A stretch of DNA of 64,000 nucleotides, from the NCBI GenBank assembly GCA_031389685.1, contig JANMSV010000211.1, positions 2,263 to 66,262 on the forward strand. Direction: 5' to 3'. Both the position numbers and the translations under genes were made by a program. The stretch is from Betaproteobacteria bacterium (GTDB lineage: Bacteria; Pseudomonadota; Gammaproteobacteria; Burkholderiales; SG8-39). Each line of letters starts with the position of its first letter. Within the stretch, counting starts at the first letter, position 1. A model generated the notes under the pieces. That model did not search any database, was not told the DNA's origin, and saw nothing but the letters and a program-made list of their open reading frames with translations. Shown here piece after piece: positions 37,363 to 55,596 of this stretch.

Positions 37363-38241
37363 TTGAGACCTGAGAAGAGCCCCGCGTTGGCGGGGCTTTT
37401 CCTTTTTGCGGCCCTTTGCTGCGCCCTCGCGCCGCCTGCCCTTGGGAAGGGCGACGCCAAGCACGGCGCGTACCTCGCGAAAGCAGGCGGCTGCGCCGGC
37501 TGCCATACGGAGGACAAGAAGGGCGCCGTGCCCTACGCGGGAGGGCGCGAATTGAAGACGCCGTTCGGCACCTTCTACGGGCCGAACATCACGCCGCACG
37601 CCGAGGCAGGCCTCGGGCGCTGGAGCGAGGCGGATTTCCTGCGCGCCCTGCGTTCCGGGAAGCGACCCGATGGCGCGCACTACTTTCCAGCGTTTCCGTA
37701 CCCTTCGTTCACCTTGATCACCGACGCGGACGTGCGCGACCTCTGGGCCTACCTGCGCTCGCTGCCGCCGGAGCGCCGCGCGAGCCGTCCCCACGACCTG
37801 AGTTTTCCTTTCAACCTGAGATTCCTGGTCGTCTTCTGGAACTGGCTGTACTTCTCGCCAGGCCCGTTCGTCGCGGATGCCGGGCGCGCGCCGACGCTTA
37901 ATCGGGGCGCCTACCTGGTGGGTGCGCTCGGCCATTGCGGCGAGTGCCACACGCCGCGCAATTTCCTTGGCGGCCTGAAGCGGGGCCGGCTGCTCGCCGG
38001 CGCGGCAAAAGGCCCCGACGGCAAGAGCGTGCCAAACCTGACGCCGGCGAAGCTGAAGAAATGGGACGACAACGAACTCAAGGAGTTCCTGGTCGTCGGC
38101 ATCACCCCGGACGGCGACGTCGCCGCGGAGACCATGGGGGAAGTGATCCGAAATACCACCAGCCAGCTGACCCCTGAGGACCTTGCAGCGCTGATTCGCT
38201 ACCTGCGCTCGCTGCCGGCGCATGCCGACGAGCCGCGCTGA
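37363..38241 (+). CDS. diheme c-type cytochrome
   Basis: Two heme sites, CAGCH and CGECH. A TTG start at 37363 gives a canonical signal peptide (RPEKSPALAGLFLFAALCCALAPPALG). The alternative ATG 37318 would overlap the c-prime gene by 40 nt. Confidence 0.7.
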   Translation: MRPEKSPALAGLFLFAALCCALAPPALGKGDAKHGAYLAKAGGCAGCHTEDKKGAVPYAGGRELKTPFGTFYGPNITPHAEAGLGRWSEADFLRALRSGKRPDGAHYFPAFPYPSFTLITDADVRDLWAYLRSLPPERRASRPHDLSFPFNLRFLVVFWNWLYFSPGPFVADAGRAPTLNRGAYLVGALGHCGECHTPRNFLGGLKRGRLLAGAAKGPDGKSVPNLTPAKLKKWDDNELKEFLVVGITPDGDVAAETMGEVIRNTTSQLTPEDLAALIRYLRSLPAHADEPR

Positions 38242-38292
38242 GCGCTTGCCTTTGTTGACGGAATACCTCGCCGCAAGGCACTGTTCTGTCCA

Positions 38293-38790
38293 ATGAGCAA
38301 CGCGCAGAGCCTGATCGATCTGATTCCGCGGTTGCGGCGCTATGCGCGCGCGCTGGTCGGCGACCGCGCGGCGGCGGACGACCTGGTGCAGGACACGCTG
38401 GAGCGCGCCTGGTCGAAGCTGCATCTGTACCAAAGCGGCACGGACTTGCGCGCCTGGCTGTTTACGGTGATGCACAACGTGCACGTGAACCGGGTGCGGG
38501 CGGCGCGGCCCACCGAATCGCTCGATGACGAGATGCCGGAACTCGCGCAGCGCGCCACGCAGGGGGACGCGCTGGTGGTGCGTGATCTCGAGCGCGGCAT
38601 CGCCGCGCTGCCTGTGGCGCAGCGCGAGGTGCTGCTGCTGGTGGCGCTCGAGGACCTGAGCTACGACGAGACCGCGCGCGCGCTCGGCATTCCGATCGGC
38701 ACCGTGATGTCGAGGCTGTCGCGGGCGCGCGAAAAGCTGCGCATACTGATGAACGGAAAGGGCGGCGGCAAGCTGCAAGTCGTGAAATGA
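38293..38790 (+). CDS. ECF-type RNA polymerase sigma-70 factor
   Basis: Region 2 (DLVQDTLERAW, WLFTVMHN) and region 4 (REVLLLVALEDLSYDETARALGIPIGTVMSRLSRAR). Confidence 0.9.
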   Translation: MSNAQSLIDLIPRLRRYARALVGDRAAADDLVQDTLERAWSKLHLYQSGTDLRAWLFTVMHNVHVNRVRAARPTESLDDEMPELAQRATQGDALVVRDLERGIAALPVAQREVLLLVALEDLSYDETARALGIPIGTVMSRLSRAREKLRILMNGKGGGKLQVVK

Positions 38791-39566
38791 GCGAGATGAG
38801 CGCGATCAGCGAAGCGGAATTGCAGGCTTGGGCGGACGGCCGGCTCGACGAGGGCCGGCGCGTGGCGCTGGAGGCCTGGTTTGCCGCGCACCCCGAGGAA
38901 GCGGAGCGCGCCGCGGCCTACCGCGGCTTCAGCGAGCAGCTGCGCATCCGTTTCGACCCGGTGCTGGAGGAACCCGTTCCGCTGCGCCTGCAGCTTGCGG
39001 CGCGGCGCGGGGCGCGACTGCGCACGCTCGGCGTTGCGGCCGGATGGGTTGCGCTGGGCATTGCCGTAGGCACTGTTGCCGGCTGGCAGTTGCACGCGCT
39101 GCAGGCGCCGGCGTCAGCCGCCAAGGCGGAGGCGCCGGTCATCGCGCGGCGTGCCGCGCTGGCGCATGCGACCTACTCCCCCGAGGTGCGTCACCCGGTG
39201 GAGGTGGGCGCCGACCAGGAGCAGCACTTGGTGGCCTGGTTGTCCAAGCGCCTCGGCGGCGAAGTGCGCGCGCCCAAGCTCGACGCTGAAGGCATGGCAC
39301 TGGTGGGCGGGCGCCTGCTGCCGCAAGACCCGGGACCGGTCGCGCAATTCATGTATCAGAACGCGCAGGGCCGGCGCGTGACGCTCTATGTGCGCACCGA
39401 GGGGCTGGATCACCGGGAGACGGCGTTCCGCTACGCTCGCGAAGGAAACGTGCGCGTGTTCTACTGGATCGACCGCAAATTCGGCTACGCGCTTTCCTCG
39501 GGCGACATGGAGCGCGAGGAACTTCTCAAGCTCGCCAACGTGGTCTACCGCCAGCTCAATCCCTGA
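38787..39566 (+). CDS. membrane anti-sigma factor
   Basis: ATGA overlap with the ECF sigma gene. N-terminal anti-sigma helix region (ELQAWADGRLDEGRR), a single TM (LGVAAGWVALGIAVGTVAGW) and a periplasmic C-terminal domain. Confidence 0.7.
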   Translation: MSEMSAISEAELQAWADGRLDEGRRVALEAWFAAHPEEAERAAAYRGFSEQLRIRFDPVLEEPVPLRLQLAARRGARLRTLGVAAGWVALGIAVGTVAGWQLHALQAPASAAKAEAPVIARRAALAHATYSPEVRHPVEVGADQEQHLVAWLSKRLGGEVRAPKLDAEGMALVGGRLLPQDPGPVAQFMYQNAQGRRVTLYVRTEGLDHRETAFRYAREGNVRVFYWIDRKFGYALSSGDMEREELLKLANVVYRQLNP

Positions 39567-39579
39567 GCAGGACTGCGCT

Positions 39580-40386
39580 TCAGGCGCCGCTGGCGGTGCG
39601 GATCAAATAGCCGCCGGACTTGTCGTCGCGTTCGAGGGTCACCAGCTTGCGCTTTTCCGCCTCCTCGAGCAGGTCGGAGAACGCCTTGAAGCCGTAGTAG
39701 GACTCGTTGAAGCCGGGCTTTCTGCGCTTGAGCGCCTGCTTGACCATCGAGCCCCAGATCTTTTCGCCCTCGCCGCGCTCGGCGATCAGCGCCTGCAGCG
39801 TCTCGATCACCAGGTCGAAAGCCTCCTGCTTCTTGTCGTCGGTCGGCGCGGCATCCTTGGGCACGCCCGCCGGACGCACCTCTCGGCGCCTTTTGGCGGC
39901 GCGGCGCTTCACCTCGTCCTCGCGTACCAGGTCGTCGTAGTAGATGAACTCGTCGCAGTTGGCGACCAGCAGGTCGGAGGAAGAATTCTTCACTCCGACC
40001 CCGATTACGGTCTTCGCGTTTTCCCGCAGCTTGGAAACCAGGGGCGAGAAGTCCGAGTCACCACTGACGATGACGAAGCTGTCCACGTGTTGCTTGGTGT
40101 AGCAAAGGTCGAGGGCGTCCACCACCATGCGGATGTCGGCCGAATTTTTGCCCGACTGGCTGCGGTGCGGGATCTCGATCAGCTCGAAAGCGGCGGCGTG
40201 CATGCCGCCCTTGAACTCCTTGTAGCGATCCCAGTCGCAATAGGCCTTCTTCACCACGATGGAGCCCTTGAGCAGCAGCTTTTCCAGCACCCGCCCGATG
40301 TCGAATTTCTCGTACTTCGCGTCGCGTACGCCCAGCGCGACGTTTTCGAAGTCGCAGAATACGGCGAGATTGCGGGTGTCGGTCAT
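39580..40386 (-). CDS. NYN (LabA-like) nuclease-domain protein with C-terminal OST-HTH/LOTUS domain
   Basis: NYN acidic motifs FCDFENV, SADIRMVVDALD and IVSGDSDFSPLV. C-terminal LOTUS-like region IWGSMVKQALKRRKPGFNESYYGFKAFSDLL. ATGA overlap with the RND gene stop. Confidence 0.8.
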   Translation of the reverse strand: MTDTRNLAVFCDFENVALGVRDAKYEKFDIGRVLEKLLLKGSIVVKKAYCDWDRYKEFKGGMHAAAFELIEIPHRSQSGKNSADIRMVVDALDLCYTKQHVDSFVIVSGDSDFSPLVSKLRENAKTVIGVGVKNSSSDLLVANCDEFIYYDDLVREDEVKRRAAKRRREVRPAGVPKDAAPTDDKKQEAFDLVIETLQALIAERGEGEKIWGSMVKQALKRRKPGFNESYYGFKAFSDLLEEAEKRKLVTLERDDKSGGYLIRTASGA

Positions 40387-43300
40387 GCCGGTCCTTGTTG
40401 TCGTTGCTGGGTTTGTGCGTGCTGCTGTCGCGCGCGGCGGTGTTCGCGCCAGTTTTCCACCAGCGAGTATGCGGCGGGCACCACCACCAGCGTGAGCAGG
40501 GTGGAGGTGATCATGCCGCCGATCACCGCAACTGCGAGCGGCGCGTTGGTCTCCGCGCCTGGGCCGACGCCGAACGCCGCCGGCAGCAAGGCAAGTATCA
40601 GCGTGGCGGAAGTCATCAGCACCGGGCGCATGCGGATCGGGCAGGCATCGGTCAGGGCCTGGTCCACGCCCAGGCCCTGCGCGCGACGCTGGTTCGTGAG
40701 GTCGACCAGCAGGATGGAATTCTTCGCCACCAGACCGATCAGCAGCACCAGGCCGATCATCGAGTAGATGTTAAGCGTATGCACCGGGATGCGCAGCCCG
40801 GTGAGCGCGCCCAGCGCCGACAGCGGCTGGAACATCCACAACGCGAATACTCCGCCGATGATCGCCAGCGGCACGGCGAGCATGATGATCAGCGGCTGCA
40901 GGAAGGAGTTGAACTGGCTGGCCAGCACCATGTAGAGCAGCACCAGCGCGAGCACGAAGGTGAAGGTCGTCGCCTGGCTGGTCTTCTCCAGCTGCTCGGC
41001 CTCGCCCACGAAAGCGACCGTGTAGCCGATCGGCAGCCCGCGCGCGGCATCGCGCACTTTTTCGATTGCCGCGCCGAGCGATACTGACGGCGTGGCGTAG
41101 AAAGTGGCGGAGTACTGCAGGTCAAAGCGTGAGATCACCGCCGGTCCCAGCGCCTCTCGGAAGCGTGCCACGCTGTCCAGGCGCACCAGTTGCCCGGTGC
41201 GGTTCCTGAGATAGATCTTGGACAGGTCGGCCTGCTGCTCGAACTCGCCGTCCTTGGCCTTGACGCGGATGTCGTAGCGTTCGCCATCGCCCGGGTGGTC
41301 GTTGTACTTGGCGATGTCCACGCCCCCGGTCAGCATGTTGATGGCGAGCGCTACGTCGGCCGAGGTGAGGCCGAGCCCCGCGGCGCGCGCTCGGTCGGGC
41401 TCCAGGACCAGCTGCGGCAGTTCGAGCTGCAGGTCGGTGTCCATGCGGCCGATCGCGGGGTCGGCCTGCAGCCGCAGCTGCAACTGCCCGGCAAGGCGCC
41501 CCATTTCCTGCAGGTTCGGGCCGCGCACCACGAATTGCAGCGGCTCGGAGCGCTGCCCCTGCACCAGGCCGAAGGCGCGCGGGAACGCGCGCGCACCGGC
41601 GATCTGCGCCAGGTCCAGGCGCAGCAGCGCGATGACCTCCTGCTGCGAGCGCCGCCTCTCGCTCTTGGGTTTCATGCGAGCCACCAGCGTCGCCTGGTTG
41701 ACCTGCTGTGCCGAGCCCAGGCCGATGACGCCGAACTCGGTGACGATCTCGGGGTAGCGGAACGCGATCTCCTCGACTTCGCGCAGTTTCGACTCGGTGT
41801 ACTGGATGGAGGAGCCCAGCGGCGTACGGATACCGACCAGGAAGCGTCCCTCGTCCTGCTGCGGCGCTAGCTCGGTGGGCAGTTGCTTGAAGAAGTAGAC
41901 CGACGAGAGGGTTACCAGCAGCGCAGCCAACATGACTTTCCAGCGGTGGGCCAGCGCGCCGCTGAGCGCGCGGCGATAAAAGTCGTCCATGCGTTTGAAC
42001 GCGCGCTCCAGCACCCAGTACAGGCGGCTGTGCTTCTCGCGCACCTCGAGGTAGCGCGAACACAGCATCGGCGTGAGGGTGAGGGAAACAAACAGCGACA
42101 CCAGTACGCCGAAAGTAACCACCACGGCGAACGAACGCAGGAATTGCCCCAGGATTCCGGAGACGAAGATCACCGGTGCGAAAATCGCCACCAGCGACAA
42201 ACTGGCGGCCATCACCGCGAAGGTCACTTCGCGGCTGCCCGAGACCGCGGCTTTGGACCGGTCGGGTTCCAGGTGCTCGCGATGCCGGTAGATGTTCTCC
42301 AGCACCACGATGGCGTCGTCCACCACCACGCCGACCAGCAGCAGCAGGGCGAGCAGCGTGACGGAATTGAAGGTGTAGCCGAAGAAGTACATGACCGCGA
42401 TGGCGCCGAACAGCGACACGGGGATCGACGTGGCGATGATCAGCGTCGAGCGGAAGCTTTTCAGGAACAGCCAGACAATGAGCGACGCGAGCAGCGTGCC
42501 TTCGATCAGGTGGCTCTTCAGCGCGTTCACCATCTCGCCGATGAACACGGCGTCGTTCTGCACGTAGTGCAGCTCCAAGCCTGGAGGCAGCTGCGGGCGG
42601 ATCTCGTTTTCGATTCGCTCGCGCACCTTGGCGATGATGTCCACCGTATTGGTGTTCGGCACCTTGACGATGCCGACGCCGACCGTCGACTTGCCGTTGA
42701 AGCGCGCCAGCTGGCGGAAATCGGCCAGGCCATCCTCGATTTCCGCGACGTCACGCAGGCGCACCGCGGCGCCATCGCGGTAACCCACGATCATCGCCGC
42801 CAGGTCGTCGAGGCGATGGAATTCCAGGTCAAGCTTGACCAGATGCTCGGTCGTGCGGCCGACGAGGAAGCCGCCGGAGAACTGGACGTGCTCACGACCG
42901 AACGCGTCGCTGATGTCCTGCGCGGCGATGCCGAAGGCAGCCATCTTCGCTGGCAGCAGATTGACGCGGATGGTGCGATCGCGCCGCCCGCCGATGCGCA
43001 CCTCGCCGACGCCGTCGACCGTTTCCAGCCGCTTCTTGATGACGTTGATCGCGTACAGGTTGAGCTGCTGCTGGGTACGGTCGCCCTGCAGGGCGGTCCA
43101 CATGATCGGCTGGGTGTTGGTCTCGACCTTGGCGACGACGGGCGGGTCCGCGTCTCTGGGCAGGCGGCGGACCACCTGGTTGACCTTGGCCTGCACTTCC
43201 TGGAACGCGGAGTCGATGCGCTTGTCCAGGTTGAACGTGATGGCGACCACCGAGGTGCCGGGGGAGGAAGTCGACTGGATGTGCTCGATGCCCGGGACGC

Positions 43301-43517
43301 TGTTCACGGCGGTCTCGATCAGGTTGGTAAGCGAGGCATCGACGATGTCCGGATTGGCACCCTTCTGTACCGTGGTGACCGAGATCACTGGAAACTCGAT
43401 GTACGGCAGCTTGTCGATGCCGATCCGGGTATAGGCGATGACGCCGAAAAGAATCAGCACCGCGTTCAGCATGAACGCGAATACGTGGCGCCTGATCGAT
43501 AGCTCAGGCAGGTTCAC
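40383..43517 (-). CDS. RND efflux transporter permease (AcrB/HAE1-like)
   Basis: 1044 aa with 12-TM RND architecture. N-terminus LPELSIRRHVFAFMLNAVLILFG and conserved VVDDAIVVLENI motif. Confidence 0.95.
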   Translation of the reverse strand: MNLPELSIRRHVFAFMLNAVLILFGVIAYTRIGIDKLPYIEFPVISVTTVQKGANPDIVDASLTNLIETAVNSVPGIEHIQSTSSPGTSVVAITFNLDKRIDSAFQEVQAKVNQVVRRLPRDADPPVVAKVETNTQPIMWTALQGDRTQQQLNLYAINVIKKRLETVDGVGEVRIGGRRDRTIRVNLLPAKMAAFGIAAQDISDAFGREHVQFSGGFLVGRTTEHLVKLDLEFHRLDDLAAMIVGYRDGAAVRLRDVAEIEDGLADFRQLARFNGKSTVGVGIVKVPNTNTVDIIAKVRERIENEIRPQLPPGLELHYVQNDAVFIGEMVNALKSHLIEGTLLASLIVWLFLKSFRSTLIIATSIPVSLFGAIAVMYFFGYTFNSVTLLALLLLVGVVVDDAIVVLENIYRHREHLEPDRSKAAVSGSREVTFAVMAASLSLVAIFAPVIFVSGILGQFLRSFAVVVTFGVLVSLFVSLTLTPMLCSRYLEVREKHSRLYWVLERAFKRMDDFYRRALSGALAHRWKVMLAALLVTLSSVYFFKQLPTELAPQQDEGRFLVGIRTPLGSSIQYTESKLREVEEIAFRYPEIVTEFGVIGLGSAQQVNQATLVARMKPKSERRRSQQEVIALLRLDLAQIAGARAFPRAFGLVQGQRSEPLQFVVRGPNLQEMGRLAGQLQLRLQADPAIGRMDTDLQLELPQLVLEPDRARAAGLGLTSADVALAINMLTGGVDIAKYNDHPGDGERYDIRVKAKDGEFEQQADLSKIYLRNRTGQLVRLDSVARFREALGPAVISRFDLQYSATFYATPSVSLGAAIEKVRDAARGLPIGYTVAFVGEAEQLEKTSQATTFTFVLALVLLYMVLASQFNSFLQPLIIMLAVPLAIIGGVFALWMFQPLSALGALTGLRIPVHTLNIYSMIGLVLLIGLVAKNSILLVDLTNQRRAQGLGVDQALTDACPIRMRPVLMTSATLILALLPAAFGVGPGAETNAPLAVAVIGGMITSTLLTLVVVPAAYSLVENWREHRRARQQHAQTQQRQQGPA

Positions 43518-44638
43518 GATGCCTTCCCGGCCGTCCCTGGTGCGGGTTTCGGCTTGGGTAGCGATACCGCGGCGCCATGGGTGAGAAACCCGGCACCGTC
43601 GACGGCGAGCGCATTGCCTGGCGCGATGCCCCGCAACACCTCGACCATGCCGTCTTGCCTGAGCCCGGTTTCTACCACGCGCTGCTCGGCGCGGCCGTCC
43701 TGGATGATGTACACCACATTGCCGGCGGGGCGCAGCACCACGCTTTGCTCCGGCACCATGATCGCCTCAGACTTGACCGACAGCACGACGCGCGCATTGA
43801 CGCTGCCGCCGCCGCGGAACGCGTGGCCGTCTGCCTCGAAGCGCACGATGGCGTCCAGCGCGCGATTACTGGTGCCGACCGTCGGTTTGATGTCCTCGAT
43901 ACGCGCCTCGACCTTGCGCTCGGGCGCAGCGGGCGAGGAGAGCACCACTTTGAGGCCGGGGCGGATGCGCTCGGCGGACGCCTCGGGAAACAGCAAGTGC
44001 GCGCGCAGCCGCTGCGTGCCGACCAGGTTGAACAGGGGATCGCCGACCTTGACGTAGTCGCCGGGTGCCACGGCCTGCACTGCGATCTCGCCGTCAATCG
44101 GCGCGACGACCCGCGTCTTGCCGAGGCTGCGGCCTGTGACTTCGGCGCGCACACGCGCCGCGGCGAGCTGCTCGCGCAATGCGTCGCGCTGGGCTGCCGC
44201 GTCGTCCGCGGAGTTCTGCGTGATGAATCCCTGGCCAACCAGCTTTTGCTGGCGCTCCACCACGCGCTCTTGCTGCGCCAGGAGGCTGCCAAGCCGCGCG
44301 ATCTCCGCCGCGTCGCCGCGCGACTGGATCTCGAAGTCCTGCGCATCGATCTCGGCCAGCAGTTCTCCCTTGCGCACCTTCTTTCCCGTCCGGCCCAGTA
44401 CACGTGTCACGCGTCCGGCCACTTCAGCACCGATCTTCGGGTCGAACACGTTCTCCAGCGAACCGACGACCTCTTCATAGACTTCGAGTGTGCGAGGTTG
44501 CACCACCGTCGTCGTAATGAGCACCGGCGGCGGGCCGGCGGGACCCTTCTTGGCCGAATCGGCTTCGCGCCCGCAGCCGGCCAGCGAGCCGCAGGCTGTG
44601 GCCCCGGCGAGAAGCAGCGCGCGAATGCAGATCACCAT
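43514..44638 (-). CDS. RND efflux periplasmic adaptor (membrane fusion) lipoprotein
   Basis: Lipobox SLAGCG, then coiled-coil hairpin, lipoyl and beta-barrel regions. ATG 44638 overlaps the lysA stop (ATGGTGA). 4-nt overlap with the RND gene. Confidence 0.88.
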   Translation of the reverse strand: MVICIRALLLAGATACGSLAGCGREADSAKKGPAGPPPVLITTTVVQPRTLEVYEEVVGSLENVFDPKIGAEVAGRVTRVLGRTGKKVRKGELLAEIDAQDFEIQSRGDAAEIARLGSLLAQQERVVERQQKLVGQGFITQNSADDAAAQRDALREQLAAARVRAEVTGRSLGKTRVVAPIDGEIAVQAVAPGDYVKVGDPLFNLVGTQRLRAHLLFPEASAERIRPGLKVVLSSPAAPERKVEARIEDIKPTVGTSNRALDAIVRFEADGHAFRGGGSVNARVVLSVKSEAIMVPEQSVVLRPAGNVVYIIQDGRAEQRVVETGLRQDGMVEVLRGIAPGNALAVDGAGFLTHGAAVSLPKPKPAPGTAGKAS

Positions 44639-45882
44639 TCCGGCATGCTTTCGCCGGCGAACAGGTCCGGCACGCTCTCGCGCCGTCGCACCAGGTGTGC
44701 CCGGTCGCCTGCGACCATGACCTCGGCCGCTCGCGGCCGCGAGTTGTAGTTCGAGCTCATGCTCATGCCATAGGCGCCCGCCGACATCACCGCCAGCAGG
44801 TCGCCCGCGCGCGCCGCCAGCGGGCGATCCTTGGCGAGAAAATCGGCGCTTTCGCAGACCGGGCCCACGATATCGTAAACAGCCGTCGCCGCTCCCGATT
44901 CCACTTCGCGCACCGGACGTACCTCGTGCCATGCACTGTACAGCGCCGGGCGCAGCAGGTCGTTCATCGCCGCGTCGACGACCAGGAAGCTGTTCGCGTC
45001 CCCGGGCTTCACGTACTCGATTCGCGTCAGCAGAACGCCGGCGTTGCCGACGATCGACCGGCCCGGGTCGACGATCAGGGATTCTTTGCGCCCGGCCAGA
45101 ACACCGAGCGCACCGTCAAGAAACTCGCCGATCGCCGCCGGGGACTCGTCGCGGTAGCGGATGCCGAATCCGCCGCCGAGATCGATGTGCGCGAGGCGGA
45201 TGCCGCCATGCTCCAGCCGCTGCGTGAGCGCCAGGATGCGCGCCGCGGCATCGATGAACGGACCCGCCGCGGCCATCAACGAGCCGATGTGGCAGCCGAT
45301 GCCGACCACTTCCACTTGCGCGATGCGCGCGGCATCCCGGTATAGCCTTTCAGCTTCCGCATACGGCACGCCGAACTTGTTCTGCTTGAGGCCGGTGGAA
45401 ATGTAGGGATGCGTATTCGCGTCGACATCGGGATTGACGCGAAACGCGATCGGCGCGCGCTTGCCCAGCCGCGCCGCCACTGTCGCTACGCGCTGCAACT
45501 CCCCCTCGGATTCCACGTTCAGGCACCGGATGCCCGCCTGCAAGGCGCGCGCAATCTCGTCTTCCGTCTTACCGACCCCGGAGAACAGGATTTTCCGCGG
45601 ATCGCCGCCCGCGGCAAGCACGCGCGCGAGTTCGCCTCCCGACACGATGTCGAAGCCTGCGCCGAGCCGCGCCAGCAGTGCCAGCACGCCAAGGTTCGAA
45701 TTCGCCTTGACCGAATACGCGATCAGCGCGCTGCGTCCGGCGAGCGCGCGGGCGAACGCGCCGTAATGGCGCTCGATCGCCGATCGCGAGTAGACGTAGC
45801 ACGGCGTGCCGAAGCGACGCGCGAGATCCTCGAACGGCACCTGTTCGGCGCACAAGGCGCCGTTGCGGTACGCGAAATCCAT
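44632..45882 (-). CDS. lysA: diaminopimelate decarboxylase
   Basis: 416 aa. PLP-lysine context AYSVKANSN, GIGCHIGS, and CESADFL near the C-terminus. Confidence 0.95.
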   Translation of the reverse strand: MDFAYRNGALCAEQVPFEDLARRFGTPCYVYSRSAIERHYGAFARALAGRSALIAYSVKANSNLGVLALLARLGAGFDIVSGGELARVLAAGGDPRKILFSGVGKTEDEIARALQAGIRCLNVESEGELQRVATVAARLGKRAPIAFRVNPDVDANTHPYISTGLKQNKFGVPYAEAERLYRDAARIAQVEVVGIGCHIGSLMAAAGPFIDAAARILALTQRLEHGGIRLAHIDLGGGFGIRYRDESPAAIGEFLDGALGVLAGRKESLIVDPGRSIVGNAGVLLTRIEYVKPGDANSFLVVDAAMNDLLRPALYSAWHEVRPVREVESGAATAVYDIVGPVCESADFLAKDRPLAARAGDLLAVMSAGAYGMSMSSNYNSRPRAAEVMVAGDRAHLVRRRESVPDLFAGESMPEW

Positions 45883-45890
45883 ACGGCGAG

Positions 45891-46064
45891 TTACTTTTTC
45901 TCGGCGTCGCCGTCGGCGTCCGCCGGGTAAGGGACGGGCTGCAAGGCCGGGGGTTTGGGCGGCTTCACTCCGGCGGGAGGTTTGTCACGAAGAAAAAGCG
46001 GGCCCCTCTGCCCGCAGCCCGCGGCCAGCAGCGCCGCGGCGACGATGAGGACGATGATGCGCAT
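45891..46064 (-). CDS. lptM: small lipoprotein LptM/YifL family (57 codons, below the ORF-track cutoff)
   Basis: My translation: MRIIVLIVAAALLAAGCGQRGPLFLRDKPPAGVKPPKPPALQPVPYPADADGDAEKK*. Lipobox LAAGC followed by GPL, Pro-rich tail. Lies 8 nt upstream of lysA and divergent from cyaY, the usual position of this gene. Confidence 0.7.
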   Translation of the reverse strand: MRIIVLIVAAALLAAGCGQRGPLFLRDKPPAGVKPPKPPALQPVPYPADADGDAEKK

Positions 46065-46106
46065 CCGGAGGCAGCTAAAATGGCCATGTTAGCAGGGAAC
46101 GATTCC

Positions 46107-46433
46107 ATGACGGACGCCGAATTTGAGTCGCTTGCCGACCGCACGCTGGCGGCGCTGGAGCGCGCGCTCGACGCCGCAGCGCTGGACGCCGACGTCCTGG
46201 CCAAGGGTGTCGGCCTGCTGGAGCTGGAGTTCGCCGACGGCTCGAAGATGGTGATCAACCGGCACACGGCCGCGCGCGAAATCTGGGTGGCGGCAAAATC
46301 GGGGGGATTCCACTTCCGCCACGCGGATGACGGGTGGCGCGATACGCGTGACGGCGGCGAGCTGTTCGCGGCACTGTCGCGGCTGGTTTCCGCGCAGGGC
46401 GGCGCGCCGGTGAAGCTCGCGCCCGGCGGCTAG
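46107..46433 (+). CDS. cyaY: iron donor protein CyaY (frataxin homologue)
   Basis: MTDAEFESLADRTL aligns with the E. coli CyaY start MNDSEFHRLADQLW. 108 aa. TAAAAT -10-like at 46076-46081 and AGGGA before ATG 46107. An in-frame ATG at 46080 is an alternative. Confidence 0.9.
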   Translation: MTDAEFESLADRTLAALERALDAAALDADVLAKGVGLLELEFADGSKMVINRHTAAREIWVAAKSGGFHFRHADDGWRDTRDGGELFAALSRLVSAQGGAPVKLAPGG

Positions 46434-48778
46434 TCCGAGACCGGGGCTGGCGACAGCGCGGATGCCGGCACTGACGGGTCCAGGGGCGGCGGCACGAAAG
46501 TGGGCAGCAGCTTGAACGGAGGCACGTCGTCTTTGGGCACGAACTCGCGGTAGAAGTACTCGGGGATATTCTTGGACTCCCCGAAGCCCGCGGGGTTGAG
46601 GTCGAAGGTTTCGGCCGTGACCACGCCGTCCGGGACGATGCGCTGCATCTCGGGTACCGCCTGCTGCGCCTTCTCCATGTAGCCGACCCAGATCGGCAAC
46701 GCCACCAATCCGCCGGTCTGGTTGCGGCCGAGAGTGCGCGGCTGGTCGTAACCCACCCACGCCACGCCGACCAGCGACGGCAGGTAACCTGCAAACCAGG
46801 CATCGATGAACTCGTTGGTGGTACCGGTCTTGCCGGCGACGTCCTTGCGGCCGAGGCTCGCGGTGCGCGCGGCGGTTCCGACGCGGGCGACGTCCTGCAT
46901 CAAACTGTCCATGATGAAGGCGTTGCGGGAGTCGATTACGCGCAACGATTCATCGCCGGCGCGCTGTGGCCGCGCGACGCCCAGGGAATTGCCTCGATCG
47001 TCCACGATTTTTTGAATGAAGTAGGGCTGCACCAGGTAGCCGCCATTGGCGAACACGGCATAGGCGCGCGCCATTTGCCACGGGGTCACCGTACCGGAAC
47101 CGAGCGCCATCGTCAGGTAGGGAGGGTGCCGCTCCGCTTCAAAACCGAAGCGCGTGATGTAGTCCTGCGCATACTTCGCGCCGATCGCATCCAGGATCCG
47201 GATCGAGACCATGTTCTTGGACTTCACCAGCGCAGTGCGCAGGCGCATCGGCCCTTCGAATTTGCCGTCGAAGTTCTTCGGCTCCCAGCGCTGGCTGCCG
47301 GTGACGTCCGCCTCGATGGCGATCGGGTCGTCGGGGATCACGGTGGCGGCAGTGAAGCCGCGCTCCAGCGCCGCCGAGTAGATGAACGGCTTGAAGGCGG
47401 ATCCGGCCTGGCGCCACGCCTGGGTGACGTGATTGAACTTGTTGCGATTGAAGTCGAACCCGCCGACCAGCGCGCGCACTGTGCCGTCTCCCGGGTCGAG
47501 CGCGATGAACGCGCCTTCCGTCTCGGGCAACTGCACGATCTGCCAGCGGCTGCGCTCGACGCGTTGCACGCGCACCACGGCGCCGCGACGGATGCGCCGC
47601 TGCGGCGCGACGCGCTGCAGCGAGGCTGCCGCGAAGCGCAGGCCGTCCCCCGTGATGGTGACGTTGTCGCCGTTCTTCAACGCCAATTTCACTTCGCGTG
47701 TGCTGGCCGACAGCACCAGAGCGACGCGCAGCTCGTCGTCGTCATCGCGTTCTGCGAGCGCCTCGTCGAAATCGTCTTCGTTGGCATCCGCGGCAAGCTC
47801 GACGAAGCCCTCGGGCCCGCGGTAGCCGAGGCGCCGGTCGTACTCGAGCAGGCCGTTGCGCAATGCCCGGACGGCCGCTTCCTGGTCTGCTTGCCGGATC
47901 GTGGTGTAGACGCGGAACCCGCGGCTGTAGGCGTCCTCGGGATACTGCTCGAAGATTGCCTGGCGCACCATTTCGGCGACGTACTCCGCGCGCACGGCGT
48001 AGGTTTCCGCGACCTTGTGCGTGACGATTGGGGTTTTCAGGGCCTGGTCGAACTCTTCGTCGCCGATGTAACCCAGCTCCTTCATGCGACGCAGCACGTA
48101 CTGCTGCCGCTGCTTTGCGCGCTGGGGATTGGCAACCGGGTTGTAGCTGGAGGGCGCCTTGGGCAGCGCCGCCAGCATTGCCGCCTCGGCCAGATTGAGC
48201 TGGTCGAGCGGCTTGCCGAAGTAAATCTGCGCCGCGGAGGCGAAACCGTAGGCCCGCTGCCCGAGGTAGATCTGGTTGATGTACAAGCCGAGGATCTGGT
48301 CCTTGCCGAGGCTGTGTTCGATCTTCAGGGCGAGCAGCACTTCATACAGCTTGCGCGTGAGCGTTTTCTCGGAAGACAGAAAGAAGTTCCGCGCCACCTG
48401 CATGGTGATGGTGCTGGCCCCCTGCCGGCGCCCGCCGGTCACCAGGTTTGCGTAGGCAGCGCGCGCCACCCCCGTGTAATCGATGCCGGAGTGCTGGTAG
48501 AAACGCTCGTCCTCCGTGGCGACAATGGCGTTGATCAGCGCCGGCGGGACCTGCTGGATGTCCACCAGCACGCGGCGCTCCTCGCCGAACTCCCCGATCA
48601 GGACACCCTCCGCCGTGTACACGCGTAGCGGCACTTTCGGGTGGTAGTCGGTCAGCGTGTCCAGGGACGGCAGATTCGGATAGGCGAGGGCAATCACCAA
48701 CCCAAGCAGGCACAGCGCAGCCGCTATCAGGCCCCCGATCAGGGCCAGCGGAAACGTCAAAAAACGAAGCCACATCAA
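46430..48778 (-). CDS. mrcA: penicillin-binding protein 1A (bifunctional transglycosylase/transpeptidase)
   Basis: N-terminal TM, glycosyltransferase motifs (EDERFYQHSGID, RKLYEVLLALKIE), and transpeptidase motifs SAFKPF, SKN and KTGTT. Confidence 0.95.
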   Translation of the reverse strand: MMWLRFLTFPLALIGGLIAAALCLLGLVIALAYPNLPSLDTLTDYHPKVPLRVYTAEGVLIGEFGEERRVLVDIQQVPPALINAIVATEDERFYQHSGIDYTGVARAAYANLVTGGRRQGASTITMQVARNFFLSSEKTLTRKLYEVLLALKIEHSLGKDQILGLYINQIYLGQRAYGFASAAQIYFGKPLDQLNLAEAAMLAALPKAPSSYNPVANPQRAKQRQQYVLRRMKELGYIGDEEFDQALKTPIVTHKVAETYAVRAEYVAEMVRQAIFEQYPEDAYSRGFRVYTTIRQADQEAAVRALRNGLLEYDRRLGYRGPEGFVELAADANEDDFDEALAERDDDDELRVALVLSASTREVKLALKNGDNVTITGDGLRFAAASLQRVAPQRRIRRGAVVRVQRVERSRWQIVQLPETEGAFIALDPGDGTVRALVGGFDFNRNKFNHVTQAWRQAGSAFKPFIYSAALERGFTAATVIPDDPIAIEADVTGSQRWEPKNFDGKFEGPMRLRTALVKSKNMVSIRILDAIGAKYAQDYITRFGFEAERHPPYLTMALGSGTVTPWQMARAYAVFANGGYLVQPYFIQKIVDDRGNSLGVARPQRAGDESLRVIDSRNAFIMDSLMQDVARVGTAARTASLGRKDVAGKTGTTNEFIDAWFAGYLPSLVGVAWVGYDQPRTLGRNQTGGLVALPIWVGYMEKAQQAVPEMQRIVPDGVVTAETFDLNPAGFGESKNIPEYFYREFVPKDDVPPFKLLPTFVPPPLDPSVPASALSPAPVSD

Positions 48779-48957
48779 GGGTTTTAGACAGCCGGAGCGA
48801 CGTTAGTGCCGCCGCAGATGGACCGGGCGGGAAATCGGGGGCATTATAGCCCGCCGCCAGGTGACGGATTCGCTAGACACAGGGAGGAGTTGTTGCTAGC
48901 ATTTAACGCAAATTCTACGTATCGTGCCTAAGGGCCGATACAAAAAGGGAAATAACG

Positions 48958-50031
48958 ATGCAACTGGATATATTTAGCCCGAAGGCACCGCCGTTGTTCG
49001 GGCTGGACATCAGCTCATCGTCGGTGAAGATGCTCGAGATCGTCGAGGCCGGCAGGGGCGCCTATCGTGTAGAGCGGTACGTGATCGAGCCACTGCCGCG
49101 CGATGCGACGGTGGACGGCAACATCAGCAACCTGGAAATGGTGGTGGAGGCGGTCAAGCGCGGCTACAAGCGCCTGGGCACGCGCTCCAAGCACGTCGCA
49201 ATGGCGGTTCCCACCGGGGCCGTGATCACCAAGAAGATCATCGTGCCGGCCAGCCTGCGAGAGCACGAGCTCGAAGTCCAGGTCGAGTCCGAAGCCAATC
49301 AGTACATCCCCTTCGCCCTCGAGGAAGTGAATCTCGACTTCCAGGTCGTCGGACCCTCGCCCACCTCGGCGGACGAGCAGGAAGTGATGATCGCCGCGAC
49401 GCGCAAGGAAAAGGTCGAGGACCGGGTGGCGGTGGCGGAATCCGCGGGTCTCAAGGCGGCGGTGATGGACATCGAATCTTTCGCCCAGCAGGCGGCGCTC
49501 GGCCTGGTGATCAAGCAACTGCCCAATGCGGGCAAGGACATGAACGTCGCGATCGTCGACGTCGGCGCCAACGTCATGAACGTCAGCGTGATGCGCAACG
49601 ACCAGTCGATCTACACGCGCGAGCAGGCGTTCGGCGGCAACCAGCTCACCCAGGACATCGTCGCGCGCTACGGGATGAGCATCGAAGAGGCCGAAAACGC
49701 CAAGCGTACCGGGGGCCTGCCGGACGATTTCGAGGCCGAAGTGCTGCGCCCATTCATGGAAAACCTGTCGATGGAAGTGCAGCGCGCGCTGCAGTTTTTC
49801 TTCACCTCGACCCAGTACCACAGCGTTGAGCAGATCCAGCTCGCCGGCGGCTCGGCGGTGATCCCGGGGATGGACGAAGTGGTGCACACGCGCACCCAGG
49901 TGCCGGCGATGGTGGCCAATCCGTTTGCCGCGATGCAGGCGTCGCCGCGCGTGGCGCTCAAGAAACTCATGGTGGACGCACCGTCGTTGATCGTGGCCTG
50001 CGGCCTGGCCATGCGGAGATTCGACCCATGA
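48958..50031 (+). CDS. pilM: type IV pilus assembly protein PilM
   Basis: Actin-like ATPase fold protein with GLDISSSSVKMLE N-terminus. First gene of the pilMNOPQ order, divergent from mrcA. Confidence 0.93.
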   Translation: MQLDIFSPKAPPLFGLDISSSSVKMLEIVEAGRGAYRVERYVIEPLPRDATVDGNISNLEMVVEAVKRGYKRLGTRSKHVAMAVPTGAVITKKIIVPASLREHELEVQVESEANQYIPFALEEVNLDFQVVGPSPTSADEQEVMIAATRKEKVEDRVAVAESAGLKAAVMDIESFAQQAALGLVIKQLPNAGKDMNVAIVDVGANVMNVSVMRNDQSIYTREQAFGGNQLTQDIVARYGMSIEEAENAKRTGGLPDDFEAEVLRPFMENLSMEVQRALQFFFTSTQYHSVEQIQLAGGSAVIPGMDEVVHTRTQVPAMVANPFAAMQASPRVALKKLMVDAPSLIVACGLAMRRFDP

Positions 50032-50624
50032 GCGTGCGCATCAACCTGCTGCCGCACCGCGAGGAGCGGCGCAAGCGCGGCCGCCAGCATTTCGCGGTGC
50101 TCGGCGGGCTGACCGCGGTGCTTGGTTTAGTGATCGTCGGCGCGGGCTTCCTGTACATCAGCGGCCTGATCGCGACGCAGGACGAACGCAACGACTTCCT
50201 CAAGACCGAGATCGCCAAGCTGGACAAGGAGATCGCCGAGATCAAGAAGCTGAAGGACGAAATCGCCGCGCTGCTGGCGCGCAAGCAGATCATCGAGACG
50301 CTGCAGGCCGATCGTGCGCAGACCGTGCACCTGCTTGACCAGATGGTGCGGCAGATGCCGGAGGGCGTCTACCTGCGCACGCTGACGCAACGCGGGCTTG
50401 GCGTCAGCGTGCAGGGTTATGCCCAATCCAATGCGCGCGTGTCCACGCTGATGCGCAATATCGAATCCTCGCCCTGGCTCGCCAGCCCCAAGCTGATCGA
50501 GATCAAGGCGAGCACGGTGAATAAAAAGCGTCTGTCCGAATTCAATATGACCCTGCAGCTCAAGCGCACCCAGCTCGCGGACGCCCCCAAGGACGCCGCC
50601 AAGGCGCCGGCGAAGAAGAGGTAA
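50028..50624 (+). CDS. pilN: type IV pilus assembly protein PilN
   Basis: INLLPHREERRKR N-terminus, single TM, coiled coil. ATGA overlap with pilM. Confidence 0.9.
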   Translation: MSVRINLLPHREERRKRGRQHFAVLGGLTAVLGLVIVGAGFLYISGLIATQDERNDFLKTEIAKLDKEIAEIKKLKDEIAALLARKQIIETLQADRAQTVHLLDQMVRQMPEGVYLRTLTQRGLGVSVQGYAQSNARVSTLMRNIESSPWLASPKLIEIKASTVNKKRLSEFNMTLQLKRTQLADAPKDAAKAPAKKR

Positions 50625-50628
50625 GCCG

Positions 50629-51282
50629 ATGGCGATCGACTTCAAGCGAATCGCGCAAGACTTCAAGGCGACCAACTGGCGGGACCCGGGTACCTGGACC
50701 GCGATCCCCAAGGCGGCCGTGCTGATCTCCGTCTTGGTCGCCTTGCCGGTGGCCGGCTATTTCGGCCTTTGGAAGGGCCAGCTCGAGGACCTGGAAAACG
50801 GCAAGGTTGCCGAGGTGCGTTTCAAGGACGACTACCTCAACAAGAAGAAGCAGGCGGTGAACCTCGACCTGCACAAGCAGCAGCTGCGCGAGATCGATAC
50901 CCAGTTCGGCGCCCTGCTCAAGCAGTTGCCGAACAAGTCGCAGATGGATGCGTTGCTGGTGGATATCAACCAGGCCGGCCTGGGCCGCGGACTGCAGTTC
51001 GAGTTGTTCAAGCCGGCCGGCCAGGAAACCGTGGGTGAGTTCTACGCCGAATTGCCGATCAGCGTGCGGGTGGTGGGCGTGTACCACGACATGGGCGCGT
51101 TCGCGAGCGACGTCGGTCAGCTATCGCGCATCGTCACGCTGAACGACGTCGGCATCAATGCCGGCAAGGATGGCAGTCTGGTGATGGACGTGACGGCGCG
51201 CACCTTCCGCTACCTGGACGAGGAAGAAGTGGCGGCGCAGCGCAAGGCGGCCGCGGGAGCACGCAAGGGAGCCAAAAAGTGA
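50629..51282 (+). CDS. pilO: type IV pilus assembly protein PilO
   Basis: Single TM followed by coiled coil and PilO-type C-terminal domain. Position between pilN and pilP. Confidence 0.88.
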   Translation: MAIDFKRIAQDFKATNWRDPGTWTAIPKAAVLISVLVALPVAGYFGLWKGQLEDLENGKVAEVRFKDDYLNKKKQAVNLDLHKQQLREIDTQFGALLKQLPNKSQMDALLVDINQAGLGRGLQFELFKPAGQETVGEFYAELPISVRVVGVYHDMGAFASDVGQLSRIVTLNDVGINAGKDGSLVMDVTARTFRYLDEEEVAAQRKAAAGARKGAKK

Positions 51283-51809
51283 TGAAACGCGTCCTGGTCC
51301 TCGCTTGCGCCGCGGTCCTCGCCGCCTGCGGCGGCGAGCAGCACAGCGACTTGAAAAAGGAGCTGAACGACATGACCAAGGACCTGCGCGGGCGGGTGGA
51401 TCCGCTGCCGCAGGTGCGTCCTTACGAGCCGGTGCCCTATCAGGCGGAGAGCGAAGTCGACCCCTTTCGTCCCGGGCGCATCGAAGTGGCGACGGCCGGC
51501 GTCGGCGGGGCGCAGGCGGCAAGCGGCAAGCAGCCGGACCACGACCGCCCGAAAGAGCCCCTCGAGGCCTTCCCGCTGGAGTCCATCCAGATGGTGGGAT
51601 CGCTGACCCAGGGCCGGGAGACCTACGGCCTGGTCAAGGCCGGACCAAACCTGTACCGCGTGCGCAAGGGAAATTACATGGGGCAGAACTTCGGCGTCAT
51701 CACCGGCATCGATGAGGTGCAGATCAGCATGAAAGAGCTGATCCAGGAAGGCAGCGGGGAGTGGGTGGAACGCGCCAGCTCGCTGCAACTGCAGGAGGTA
51801 AAGAAATGA
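51279..51809 (+). CDS. pilP: type IV pilus assembly lipoprotein PilP
   Basis: Lipobox LAACGG. Start GTG 51279 or ATG 51282, overlapping the pilO stop. Position before pilQ. Confidence 0.85.
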   Translation: MMKRVLVLACAAVLAACGGEQHSDLKKELNDMTKDLRGRVDPLPQVRPYEPVPYQAESEVDPFRPGRIEVATAGVGGAQAASGKQPDHDRPKEPLEAFPLESIQMVGSLTQGRETYGLVKAGPNLYRVRKGNYMGQNFGVITGIDEVQISMKELIQEGSGEWVERASSLQLQEVKK

Positions 51810-53890: not shown

Positions 53891-53920
53891 AAAATTTGCC
53901 GGGTCTCCTTCTTGGGCATG

Positions 53921-53946
53921 CGGCCGGGACCTCCCGGCCGTTTTTC
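53921..53946 (+). terminator. Rho-independent terminator after pilQ
   Basis: CGGCCGGGA-cc-TCCCGGCCG GC-rich hairpin (53921-53940) followed by TTTTTC. Confidence 0.7.
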
Positions 53947-53971
53947 TGTCCGGCGTCCGTACAATAGGCCC

Positions 53972-54505
53972 ATGCGAGGCGCGCGCAACGTGTTCCTGAT
54001 CGGCATGATGGGGGCGGGGAAGACCACCGCGGGCCGCATCATCGCGCGCAGGGCAAAGCGCGATTTCCACGATTCCGACCAGGAGCTCGAGCGCCGCTGC
54101 GGCGTCAAGATTCCGGTGATCTTCGAGATCGAGGGGGAAGCGGGTTTCCGGGCGCGCGAGGCCGCGGCGATCGCAGAGCTCACGGCGCTGGAGGACATCG
54201 TGCTCGCCACCGGCGGCGGCGCGGTACTGGCGCAGGCCAACCGGCGCAACCTCGCGAGCCGCGGGACGGTAATCTACCTGCGCGCTCAGCCCCCGGCATT
54301 GTTCGAACGCGTGCGGCAGGACAAGAACCGGCCGCTGCTGGCGACCGCGAATCCGCTGGCGCGGCTGGAGGAGATCTACGCCGAGCGCGATCCGCTGTAC
54401 CGCGAGATCGCCGACATGGTTGTCGACACCGGCCGGCAAAGCGTGCAGAGCCTCGCACGCCAACTGCTCGCGCAACTCAGGGAAGAATGGAAACTCTCCG
54501 CGTAG
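53972..54505 (+). CDS. aroK: shikimate kinase
   Basis: [17 protein letters not shown] Walker A. Colinear with E. coli AroK from the ATG at 53972. The listed TTG 53912 start would run through the pilQ terminator. Confidence 0.93.
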
Positions 54506-55596
54506 AGTTGGGCGAGCACGCCTACCCGATCCATATCGGCGCCGGCACGATCGACGCGGCGGATCTGTACCGCCCGCATCTGGGCGCCGGGCGCGTCGCC
54601 GTGGTGACCAATCCGGTGGTCGCGCCGCTTTACCTGGAGCGCGTCAAGGCCGCGCTGGGCCGCGCCGGGGCACTCGACACCCTGGAGGTGCTGGTCGCGG
54701 ACGGCGAGGCGGCGAAAAGCTGGGGCGCGCTGGACCGCGTGTTCGACGCCCTGCTCGGCGCGCGGCTGGGCCGTGACGGGGTGATCATCGCACTTGGCGG
54801 AGGCGTGATCGGGGACCTCGCAGGATTCGCCGCAGCGATCTACCAGCGCGGGATCCCCCTCATTCAGGTGCCGACCACGCTGCTCGCGCAGGTCGATTCC
54901 GCGGTGGGTGGCAAGACGGCGGTCAACCACGCGCGCGGCAAAAACATGATCGGTGCCTTTCACCAGCCGCGCGCGGTCATCGCCGACGTCGCCGCGCTCG
55001 GCACGCTGCCCGAGCGCGAATTGCGCGCCGGCGTCGCCGAGGTCATCAAGCACGGCTTTGCGCTCGACGCCAAGCTCGTCGCGTGGCTCGAGAGCAACGT
55101 CGAGCGCGTGTTGGCGCGGGAAGCAGACGCACTGATTCACGTGGTGCGCCGGTCCTGCGAGCTGAAAGCCGCGGCCGTGGCGGCCGATGAGCGCGAGGCC
55201 GGAACGCGCGCACTGCTCAACTTCGGCCATACATTTGGCCATGCCATCGAGGCCGGGTCCGGCTATGGCGCGTGGCTGCATGGCGAAGCAGTGGCGGCCG
55301 GCATGGTGATGGCGAGCGAGCTTTCCGTACGTGCCGGGCGGCTGCCGGCAGCCGAGGCGCTGCGCGTACGCCACTTGCTTCAGCGTGCCGGACTTCCCGT
55401 CGCGGGGCCCGCGCTCGCGCCGGAGCGCTACCTGGAATTGATGGCCGGGGACAAGAAGGCGGCCGCCGGGCGCATCCGTTATGTGCTGCTCGAGGCCGTC
55501 GGGCGCGCCTTGCTGTGCGCCGACATCGACGAGCGCGACGTGCGCGCGTCGATCTTGGCCGGCACCATCGGCACCGCGGCTGCCGCAGCGCAGTAA
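54487..55596 (+). CDS. aroB: 3-dehydroquinate synthase
   Basis: [17 protein letters not shown] site, metal ligands in GHTFGHAIE and HGEAVAAGM. Overlaps the aroK 3' end. Confidence 0.95.

Follow-up and report, generated by a model that had tools for sequence, protein, structure and literature searches.

The window analysed here is a stretch of 64,000 nucleotides of contig JANMSV010000211.1, from a betaproteobacterium of the order Burkholderiales. On its minus strand, between positions 39580 and 46064, five open reading frames (ORFs) follow each other head to tail: lptM, lysA, the genes of the periplasmic adaptor (membrane fusion protein, MFP) and the permease of an RND efflux pump, and a gene for a protein with a NYN and an OST-HTH (LOTUS) domain (Table 1). 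The lptM/lysA junction, read from the sequence like the three others, consists of a TAA stop codon, an 8-nt gap (ctcgccgt) and an ATG. The following ones are overlaps: 7 nt between lysA and the adaptor gene (ATGGTGA), 4 nt between the adaptor and permease genes (GTGA) and 4 nt between the permease and NYN genes (ATGA). Stop and start codons of these same-strand genes overlap or nearly touch (+8, -7, -4 and -4 nt), which is the sequence pattern of an operon. The permease and NYN starts align to residues 1-3 of their homologues, and the Shine-Dalgarno-like motifs GGGAAGG and AAGGA are located 4-5 nt upstream of them. The adaptor start is supported by its lipoprotein signal with a lipobox (MVICIRALLLAGATACGSLAGC) and by the overlapped start geometry recurring in relatives. 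The gene identities, coordinates and junction lengths had been proposed in an earlier note on this DNA and are all confirmed by the sequence and the family models; the start codons stand, and the overlaps do not vanish through a reassignment of starts.

Table 1. Features of the lptM-lysA-RND-NYN locus and its surroundings; positions refer to the window unless a related locus (L number) is named.
Feature	Position	Strand	Remarks
ECF sigma factor	38293-38790	+	Pfam Sigma70_r2 and r4_2
259-aa protein, putative anti-sigma factor	38787-39566	+	4-nt overlap with the ECF sigma gene
NYN (LK-nuclease)+OST-HTH/LOTUS protein, 268 aa, predicted stand-alone RNase	39580-40386	-	Pfam NYN and OST-HTH; terminal gene of the five
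RND inner-membrane permease, cassette type T1	40383-43517	-	Pfam ACR_tran; GTG start inside GTGA, stop inside ATGA
RND periplasmic adaptor (MFP), lipoprotein	43514-44638	-	TIGR01730; start overlaps the lysA stop
Variable cassette segment (adaptor and permease)	40387-44672		blastn breakpoints against relatives with the other pump type or no pump
lysA, diaminopimelate decarboxylase	44632-45882	-	TIGR01048
lptM	45891-46064	-	Opens the string and is oriented divergently to cyaY; NCBIfam NF047847
cyaY (frataxin), divergent neighbour	46080-46433	+	Pfam Frataxin_Cyay, 87.6 bits
Class A penicillin-binding protein (PBP1A-like)	46430-48778	-	Pfam Transgly, PCB_OB and Transpeptidase; syntenic in relatives
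Loci with a DNA repair or recombination gene upstream of the NYN gene	L055:8204-9979, L067:7953-8699, L044:9184-9954, L027:7979-9946, L029:7736-9160, L045:3648-5372, L063:1581-4208

LptM passes the NCBIfam equivalog model NF047847 (31.4 bits, cut-off 27.7) and is found just below the cut-off of Pfam LptM_cons (PF13627; 25.7 versus 27.3 bits). It has a lipoprotein signal with the lipobox LAAGC as well as the conserved CGxxGPL region (...LLAAGCGQRGPLFL) and is predicted to be the small lipoprotein that serves as a maturation factor of the lipopolysaccharide (LPS) translocon. A paper on LptM, consulted for gene context, gave no mention of lysA. LysA reaches 497.5 bits with TIGR01048 (cut-off 297.9), and both pyridoxal-phosphate-dependent decarboxylase domains are present. 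A terminator-like hairpin is located on the minus strand inside the lptM coding region (window 45998-46015; GCGGGCAGAGGGGCCCGC, then TTTTTCTT), where it overlaps the codons of the conserved CGQRGPLFL motif. This hairpin may be incidental or may act as an attenuator ahead of lysA.

The adaptor scores 233.6 bits with TIGR01730 (RND_mfp; cut-off 94.9), and the permease 838 bits with Pfam ACR_tran (PF00873), spanning positions 3-1020 of 1021. The best NCBIfam subfamily model for the permease, RND_permease_2, gives 871.6 bits, under its cut-off of 1250, and the protein remains below the cut-off of all the NCBIfam subfamily models (RND_permease_1/_2, 2A0602 and CusA/CzcA). The pump type, designated T1, can thus be assigned to none of these curated multidrug or metal subfamilies. 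Judged by their sequences, both T1 and a second type (T2) found in relatives look like generic multidrug-type (HAE-1) transporters. The string holds no gene for an outer-membrane factor (OMF), and a tblastn search of the 64-kb window with one query (the OMF of locus L105), which has a low sensitivity, gave no match. Neither was a regulator gene accompanying the pump found in a Pfam scan of the window.

RND operons without an OMF gene are common; in Escherichia coli, acrAB and mdtABC use tolC, which is encoded elsewhere, and MexXY is of the same type. Like these systems, the window pump consists of a lipoprotein adaptor followed by a permease with 12 transmembrane segments, with an overlapped junction and no OMF gene in the operon. 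Unlike them, it has no local regulator gene and sits behind a biosynthetic gene, its permease is placed under the NCBIfam subfamily cut-offs, and a 62% identical homologue elsewhere is accompanied by TetR and OMF genes.

In the last protein of the string, the N-terminal NYN domain (PF01936) scores 125.6 bits against a gathering score of 24.2, and the C-terminal OST-HTH domain (PF12872) 25.1 bits against 23.8. Relatives in the PDB are VPA0982 (2qip) and the NYN domain of MARF1 (6fdl), with which the acidic active-site residues D12/E14/N15 (FCDFEN), D84 (KNSAD) and D109/D111 (SGDSDF) align. Across 101 sequences, the motifs FCDFEN, SGKNSADIR (SGKNSADIRMVVDALDLCYTK) and SGDSDF (SGDSDFSPLVSKLREN) reach an invariance of at least 98%. 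The C-terminal domain alone has a weak PDB match only (2kpm, a Nitrosomonas OST-HTH domain, E = 0.85), so that its assignment rests on Pfam. With 30.5 bits for a cut-off of 178.45, the protein is not a member of TIGR00288, the name given by the Joint Genome Institute to many of its homologues.

The LK-nuclease+OST-HTH architecture has been described as widespread and sporadic, without a conserved neighbourhood, and as a predicted stand-alone RNase (Anantharaman, Zhang and Aravind 2010, PMC2848206). The window protein shares with the proteins of that study the N-terminal NYN domain, the single C-terminal OST-HTH domain, the intact acidic motifs and the lack of a conserved neighbourhood. Nothing essential differs, and in the present clade the gene is the last cistron of the lysA string. 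By its domains and motifs, the protein qualifies as a textbook bacterial LK-nuclease+OST-HTH protein with a predicted ribonuclease activity; no tested activity of a bacterial NYN+OST-HTH member was found in the searched literature. It has at least 8000 homologues, the top 120 clusters of which show at least 89% identity, and it is 67-77% identical to homologues in metagenome-assembled genomes (MAGs) labelled Gammaproteobacteria, Deltaproteobacteria, Syntrophales, Planctomycetota and Verrucomicrobiota. No other protein of the string is conserved as well: its median identity is 82%, compared with 71% for lysA. Either a very strong constraint, a recent lateral spread or mis-binned contigs could account for this conservation.

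The string was compared with about 110 related loci, comprising 80 species-representative genomes anchored on the NYN gene and 33 metagenome loci anchored on the T1 permease. In loci with a high G+C content, genes were called by clustering of all ORFs, which were ranked by GC3 minus GC2 (the G+C content of third versus second codon positions). Among the 80 NYN-anchored genomes, the frame PBP1A-cyaY-lptM-lysA...NYN...orf259-ECF sigma was only present in the closest clade (L001-L019 and L048). Its members are all MAGs of uncultured Burkholderiales/Betaproteobacteria from soil and freshwater, with NYN proteins 76-91% identical. Within this frame, the interval between lysA and NYN occurs in four states in the 80-genome survey: a T1 pump, a T2 pump, no pump and a deletion scar.

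The T1 pump occupies the slot in L003, L004, L013, L015, L017 and L018 (RND 79-85% identical), as well as in most of the metagenome loci L081-L113. T1 orthologues are 77-93% identical overall, and those of the 33 metagenome loci are located in the same frame wherever the contig includes the flanks. Nine loci (L001, L002, L005, L008, L009, L011, L014, L016 and L019) carry the T2 pump, with an MdtB/C-like permease and an MdtA-like adaptor, 31% identical to T1 and 73-86% among its own members. L001, which represents the closest GTDB species among the 80 genomes (NYN 91%), carries T2. Neighbour-joining trees of the flanking genes, which are poorly resolved, show T1 and T2 loci intermingled. The pump is absent from L010, where 18 nt lead from the lysA stop to the NYN ATG. 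In L012 (9238-9984), an open 248-aa ORF fuses residues 18-105 of the T1 adaptor to residues 895-1028 of the T1 permease. This ORF represents a clean in-frame deletion scar of ~3.9 kb between an intact lysA and an intact NYN gene.

The borders of the exchanged segment are sharp. Towards L011 (T2), the blastn homology of the window ends at 44672 and resumes at 40390; towards L010 (no pump), the breakpoints are 44677 and 40395; and towards L001 (T2), homology resumes at 40387. The window and its T2 or pump-less relatives thus stop being homologous ~40 nt before the lysA stop and become so again 1-9 nt before the NYN ATG, which delimits the variable segment (4.3 kb) to precisely the two pump genes. 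Replacement-type flexible genomic islets, as found at O-antigen or capsule loci, likewise hold alternative cassettes between conserved flanks. The present locus resembles them in its two non-homologous cassettes, or none, between the same conserved flanks and in its sharp homology breakpoints. Unlike the O-antigen and capsule islets, its cassette is a mere two-gene segment within an operon. There was no sign of an integrase, a tRNA or repeats at the cassette, the last of these not having been specifically searched for.

The tight packing of the string is a real, inherited arrangement, since it is conserved in relatives. At least 17 T1 loci share the overlap between lysA and the adaptor gene, with junctions of -4, -7 or -10 nt, and the adaptor/permease junction measures -4 to +4 nt in most T1 loci, with up to +15 in L015. 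More distant T1 orthologues (L094, L095 and L098; 69-71%) keep the order PBP1A-cyaY-lysA-MFP-RND and are not followed by NYN; PCuAC, ExbD, ExbB or a histidine kinase is encoded downstream of their RND gene instead. The 62% identical T1 homologue (L105) is located away from lysA, in the order TetR-MFP-RND-OMF. Adjacency of lysA with RND and of RND with NYN is restricted to one Burkholderiales clade, with no recurrence in independent lineages, and lysA was not found near NYN in any of the 61 other NYN loci.

In about ten relatives (L003, L004, L084, L085, L089, L093, L106, L113, partially L082, and the T2 locus L016), a gene of a thiamine-pyrophosphate (TPP) enzyme of 513-544 aa is located on the opposite strand between RND and NYN. 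The enzyme is acetolactate-synthase-like (PRK07586, 742 bits). The spacers between RND and NYN in L083, L103 and L111 are 250-294 nt long and encode only residues 32-60 and ~489-544 of it; to judge from these remnants, they are internal-deletion scars of the TPP gene. As the gene is present in about ten relatives and scarred in three, the contact of RND and NYN follows the loss of the TPP gene. Loci without it have junctions of anything between -26 and +57 nt, so that the ATGA of the window is one outcome of the loss of an intervening gene. A missing OMF gene had been considered for the 1.6-kb gap between RND and NYN of L003, L004 and L016; it was ruled out, as the gap is filled by this opposite-strand TPP gene.

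In 61 genomes outside the clade (L020-L080), the NYN gene lies among unrelated genes, for instance those for CorA, an ABC transporter, MutL, endonuclease V, RmuC and OmpA. All-against-all clustering of the neighbours in these loci revealed no partner family. The 118 upstream neighbours of NYN matched 141 Pfam families, of which the commonest, CorA and ABC permease, occur six times each. In L006 and L007 (NYN 79-81% identical), PilT-like genes are found upstream in place of the lysA string.

Two further patterns were seen around the NYN gene. An adaptor and permease pair is located on the same strand downstream of NYN in L054 (9950-15615) and L064 (9971-15482), both from one gammaproteobacterial lineage. 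This pump is of a third type (26-28% identical to T1 and T2), with a GTP cyclohydrolase I gene upstream and an amino-acid permease gene downstream, and the adjacency was judged to be at about chance expectation. Several unrelated lineages have a gene for DNA repair or recombination upstream of NYN on the same strand, mostly directly adjacent (Table 1); it encodes MutL, endonuclease V, RmuC, a RecN/SMC-like ATPase or an Ogt/AlkA fusion. About five independent cases compare with about two expected, which is marginal, and the signal was weaker in a systematic scan. These neighbours might hint at DNA rather than RNA as the substrate of the NYN protein.

The head of the string can be compared with the homologous E. 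coli K-12 locus, where cyaY is divergent from lptM (yifL), followed by dapF, yigA, xerC and yigB with overlaps of -4, -4 and -1 nt. The overlapped genes there encode a diaminopimelate (DAP) epimerase, a DUF484 protein, a recombinase and a riboflavin-pathway phosphatase. Both loci share cyaY divergent from lptM, then a gene of the DAP/lysine pathway, and then unrelated overlapped genes. They differ in that lysA instead of dapF follows lptM here, and in the tail, formed by the RND adaptor, the permease and the NYN/OST-HTH gene versus DUF484, XerC and YigB. The known state of this locus is therefore one in which lptM is followed by a DAP/lysine gene and by unrelated genes that overlap with it. 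The Pseudomonas version is lppL-lysA-dapF-xerC.

Neither is such packing exceptional within the window, where 6 of 25 same-strand junctions are overlaps of -4 or -1 nt and 9 of 25 measure at most 8 nt by a crude gene call; the E. coli locus is likewise overlapped. Another string on the plus strand (window 48958-55596) shows junctions of -4, +4 and -4 nt, followed by short gaps or apparent overlaps based on longest-ORF starts. This string shows that overlapped strings are routine in this genome.

A consensus scan for sigma-70-like promoters gave no match in 39300-46500, which is uninformative at 65% G+C. No terminator-like site was found at any junction, the only minus-strand hairpins being located inside lptM and the RND gene. 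No Rfam riboswitch or leader element was detected in 38000-49000, the sole match (E = 0.63) lying inside the PBP1A gene. The spacing suggests that the five genes are co-transcribed, which fits the lack of promoter and terminator matches at the junctions.

Taken together, the string is likely to be a compact patchwork operon built by accretion rather than a functional module. Its head, with cyaY divergent from lptM and a DAP-pathway gene behind it, is an old proteobacterial arrangement. The adaptor and permease genes directly behind lysA form a clade-specific, exchangeable and dispensable cassette: the slot is occupied by one or the other of two unrelated pumps, and two relatives (L010 and L012) have no working pump in it. 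The NYN+OST-HTH gene is a widespread and very conserved stand-alone gene, which appears to have lain downstream of the opposite-strand TPP gene until the loss of the latter brought it against the stop codon of the pump. The assembly would thus have started from the old cyaY/lptM-lysA head, to which the pump cassette was added and into which a deletion pulled the nuclease gene.

Such an operon would be transcribed as one mRNA of five genes, starting at a promoter within or close to the tiny spacer between cyaY and lptM, with ribosomes re-initiating at the overlapped stop and start signals ATGGTGA, GTGA and ATGA. The pump would pair with an outer-membrane channel encoded elsewhere and export an amphiphilic substrate, and the NYN protein would act alone as an RNA nuclease on targets unrelated to the pump or to lysine synthesis.

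The two oddities claimed for this string in the earlier note have therefore found ordinary explanations, while its facts were right, so that its interpretation is partly supported. The coupling of lysA to a pump without an OMF gene is real as an arrangement; it is not odd, given that such RND operons are common and that the pump is a cassette that can be swapped or lost. The junction of pump and NYN genes also stands, and its strangeness disappears with the TPP gene and with the unrelated NYN neighbours in the 61 genomes. The reading of the NYN protein, with all acidic motifs intact and an OST-HTH/LOTUS domain, is borne out by the alignments with 2qip and 6fdl and by Pfam. The adjacencies are not unique to this genome, as the string recurs in the Burkholderiales clade; they are limited to it, however, and even there they are interrupted where the cassette is lost or the TPP gene intervenes.

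Several points weigh against accretion as the whole explanation. Co-transcription was deduced from the spacing only, and the consensus promoter scan says little at this G+C content. The flank trees were built by neighbour joining and are star-like and unsupported, which makes the number of T1/T2 switches uncertain. The direction of the change, from a TPP gene present to a TPP gene lost, is proven solely for the three scarred loci. The order lysA-adaptor-permease and the lysA/adaptor overlap persist with lysA identities down to 58-62%, and the junctions of the T2 pump are equally tight, which leaves room for selection for co-expression with lptM-lysA. The conserved lysA/adaptor overlap across the clade stays a mild curiosity.

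As an alternative, the clade may keep a pump of either type in translational coupling with lysine/DAP metabolism and with the maturation of the LPS translocon, either because it handles a derivative of DAP, lysine or cadaverine or an envelope intermediate, or because it is needed in a fixed proportion. In favour of this, the order is kept in all T1 loci, the lysA/adaptor overlap is conserved, a second, unrelated pump has taken the same slot with junctions as tight, and the neighbouring PBP1A and lptM are envelope genes. Yet all cases belong to one lineage, which may reflect one inherited event and one replacement, and in L010 and L012 the pump is missing or destroyed with lysA and NYN intact. 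The nearest homologue outside the clade forms an ordinary TetR-MFP-RND-OMF operon away from lysA, both pumps resemble generic multidrug transporters, and known exporters of lysine and DAP-related compounds belong to other families (LysE and LysO). A literature search for a functional link between lysA and RND returned nothing relevant either, and we regard such a tie as unlikely. A role of the NYN+OST-HTH RNase in its own operon, by cleaving or stabilizing the lptM-lysA-pump mRNA or by acting on transcripts of membrane proteins, is very improbable. It is true that NYN lies downstream of the lysA(-pump) string throughout the clade, abuts the upstream gene in many members (-26 to +2 nt), directly follows lysA in L010 and exceeds every other protein of the string in conservation. 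Against this stand the opposite-strand gene between pump and NYN in about ten relatives, the unrelated neighbours in the 61 other genomes, the PilT-like genes upstream of close NYN homologues in L006 and L007, and the published analysis, which reports no conserved neighbourhood (PMC2848206). The sole further case of NYN near RND, in L054/L064, comes from one lineage, has a different order and is about at chance level.

The combination of both ideas, with a pump of either type kept as a coupled part of an lptM-lysA envelope operon and the terminal NYN/LOTUS RNase tuning its mRNA, is hardly more credible than the latter. The opposite extreme, in which the genes are adjacent and nevertheless form separate transcription units, with internal promoters in the 3' ends of lysA and RND and overlaps that mean mere compaction, is also improbable. 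It would suit the pump, which has no accompanying regulator gene, and the TPP-bearing relatives, where NYN must be served by a separate promoter within a very short divergent spacer, and elements of this promoter might survive in the 3' end of RND. However, no junction leaves any intergenic space, and neither a promoter-like match nor a terminator-like site was found there. Accretion into a patchwork operon therefore remains our preferred reading.

Among the flanking genes, the longest-ORF start of cyaY is located just 15 nt from the lptM start. The true start is probably the ATG at 46107 (MTDAEF...; MTDAEFESLADR...), which would give a divergent spacer of 42 nt to lptM. The divergent arrangement of both genes is kept in the relatives and in E. 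coli. At its other end, cyaY is convergent with the PBP1A gene, and the stops of the two genes share 4 nt (46430-46433). The ECF sigma gene and the adjoining gene of the 259-aa protein, which has no match in Pfam or NCBIfam, are convergent with NYN; 13 nt separate the stop of the 259-aa ORF from the NYN stop, and the sigma factor/259-aa pair is conserved downstream of NYN across the whole clade.

All components of the string come from known families, and their arrangement is a further instance of the known mixed-operon kind. The locus also calls for caution, as overlapping start and stop codons and clade-level synteny alone do not prove a functional link. If the pump was indeed coupled to lptM-lysA and the NYN protein tuned the mRNA, the metabolism of cell-wall precursors, efflux and RNA decay would be functionally linked in a new way; if the pump was under selection within the lptM-lysA operon, it might remove a DAP-, lysine- or envelope-derived compound. 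As it is read here, the locus provides a clean example, from uncultured Burkholderiales of soil and freshwater, of a housekeeping operon in which an efflux cassette is exchanged or lost. The alternative cassettes, the pump-less relative, the fused remnant and the scars of a lost gene allow the assembly of this operon to be reconstructed step by step. It moreover puts a bacterial NYN+LOTUS nuclease, very conserved and uncharacterised, at the end of an operon that looks constitutive, which could help to study the expression of this nuclease.

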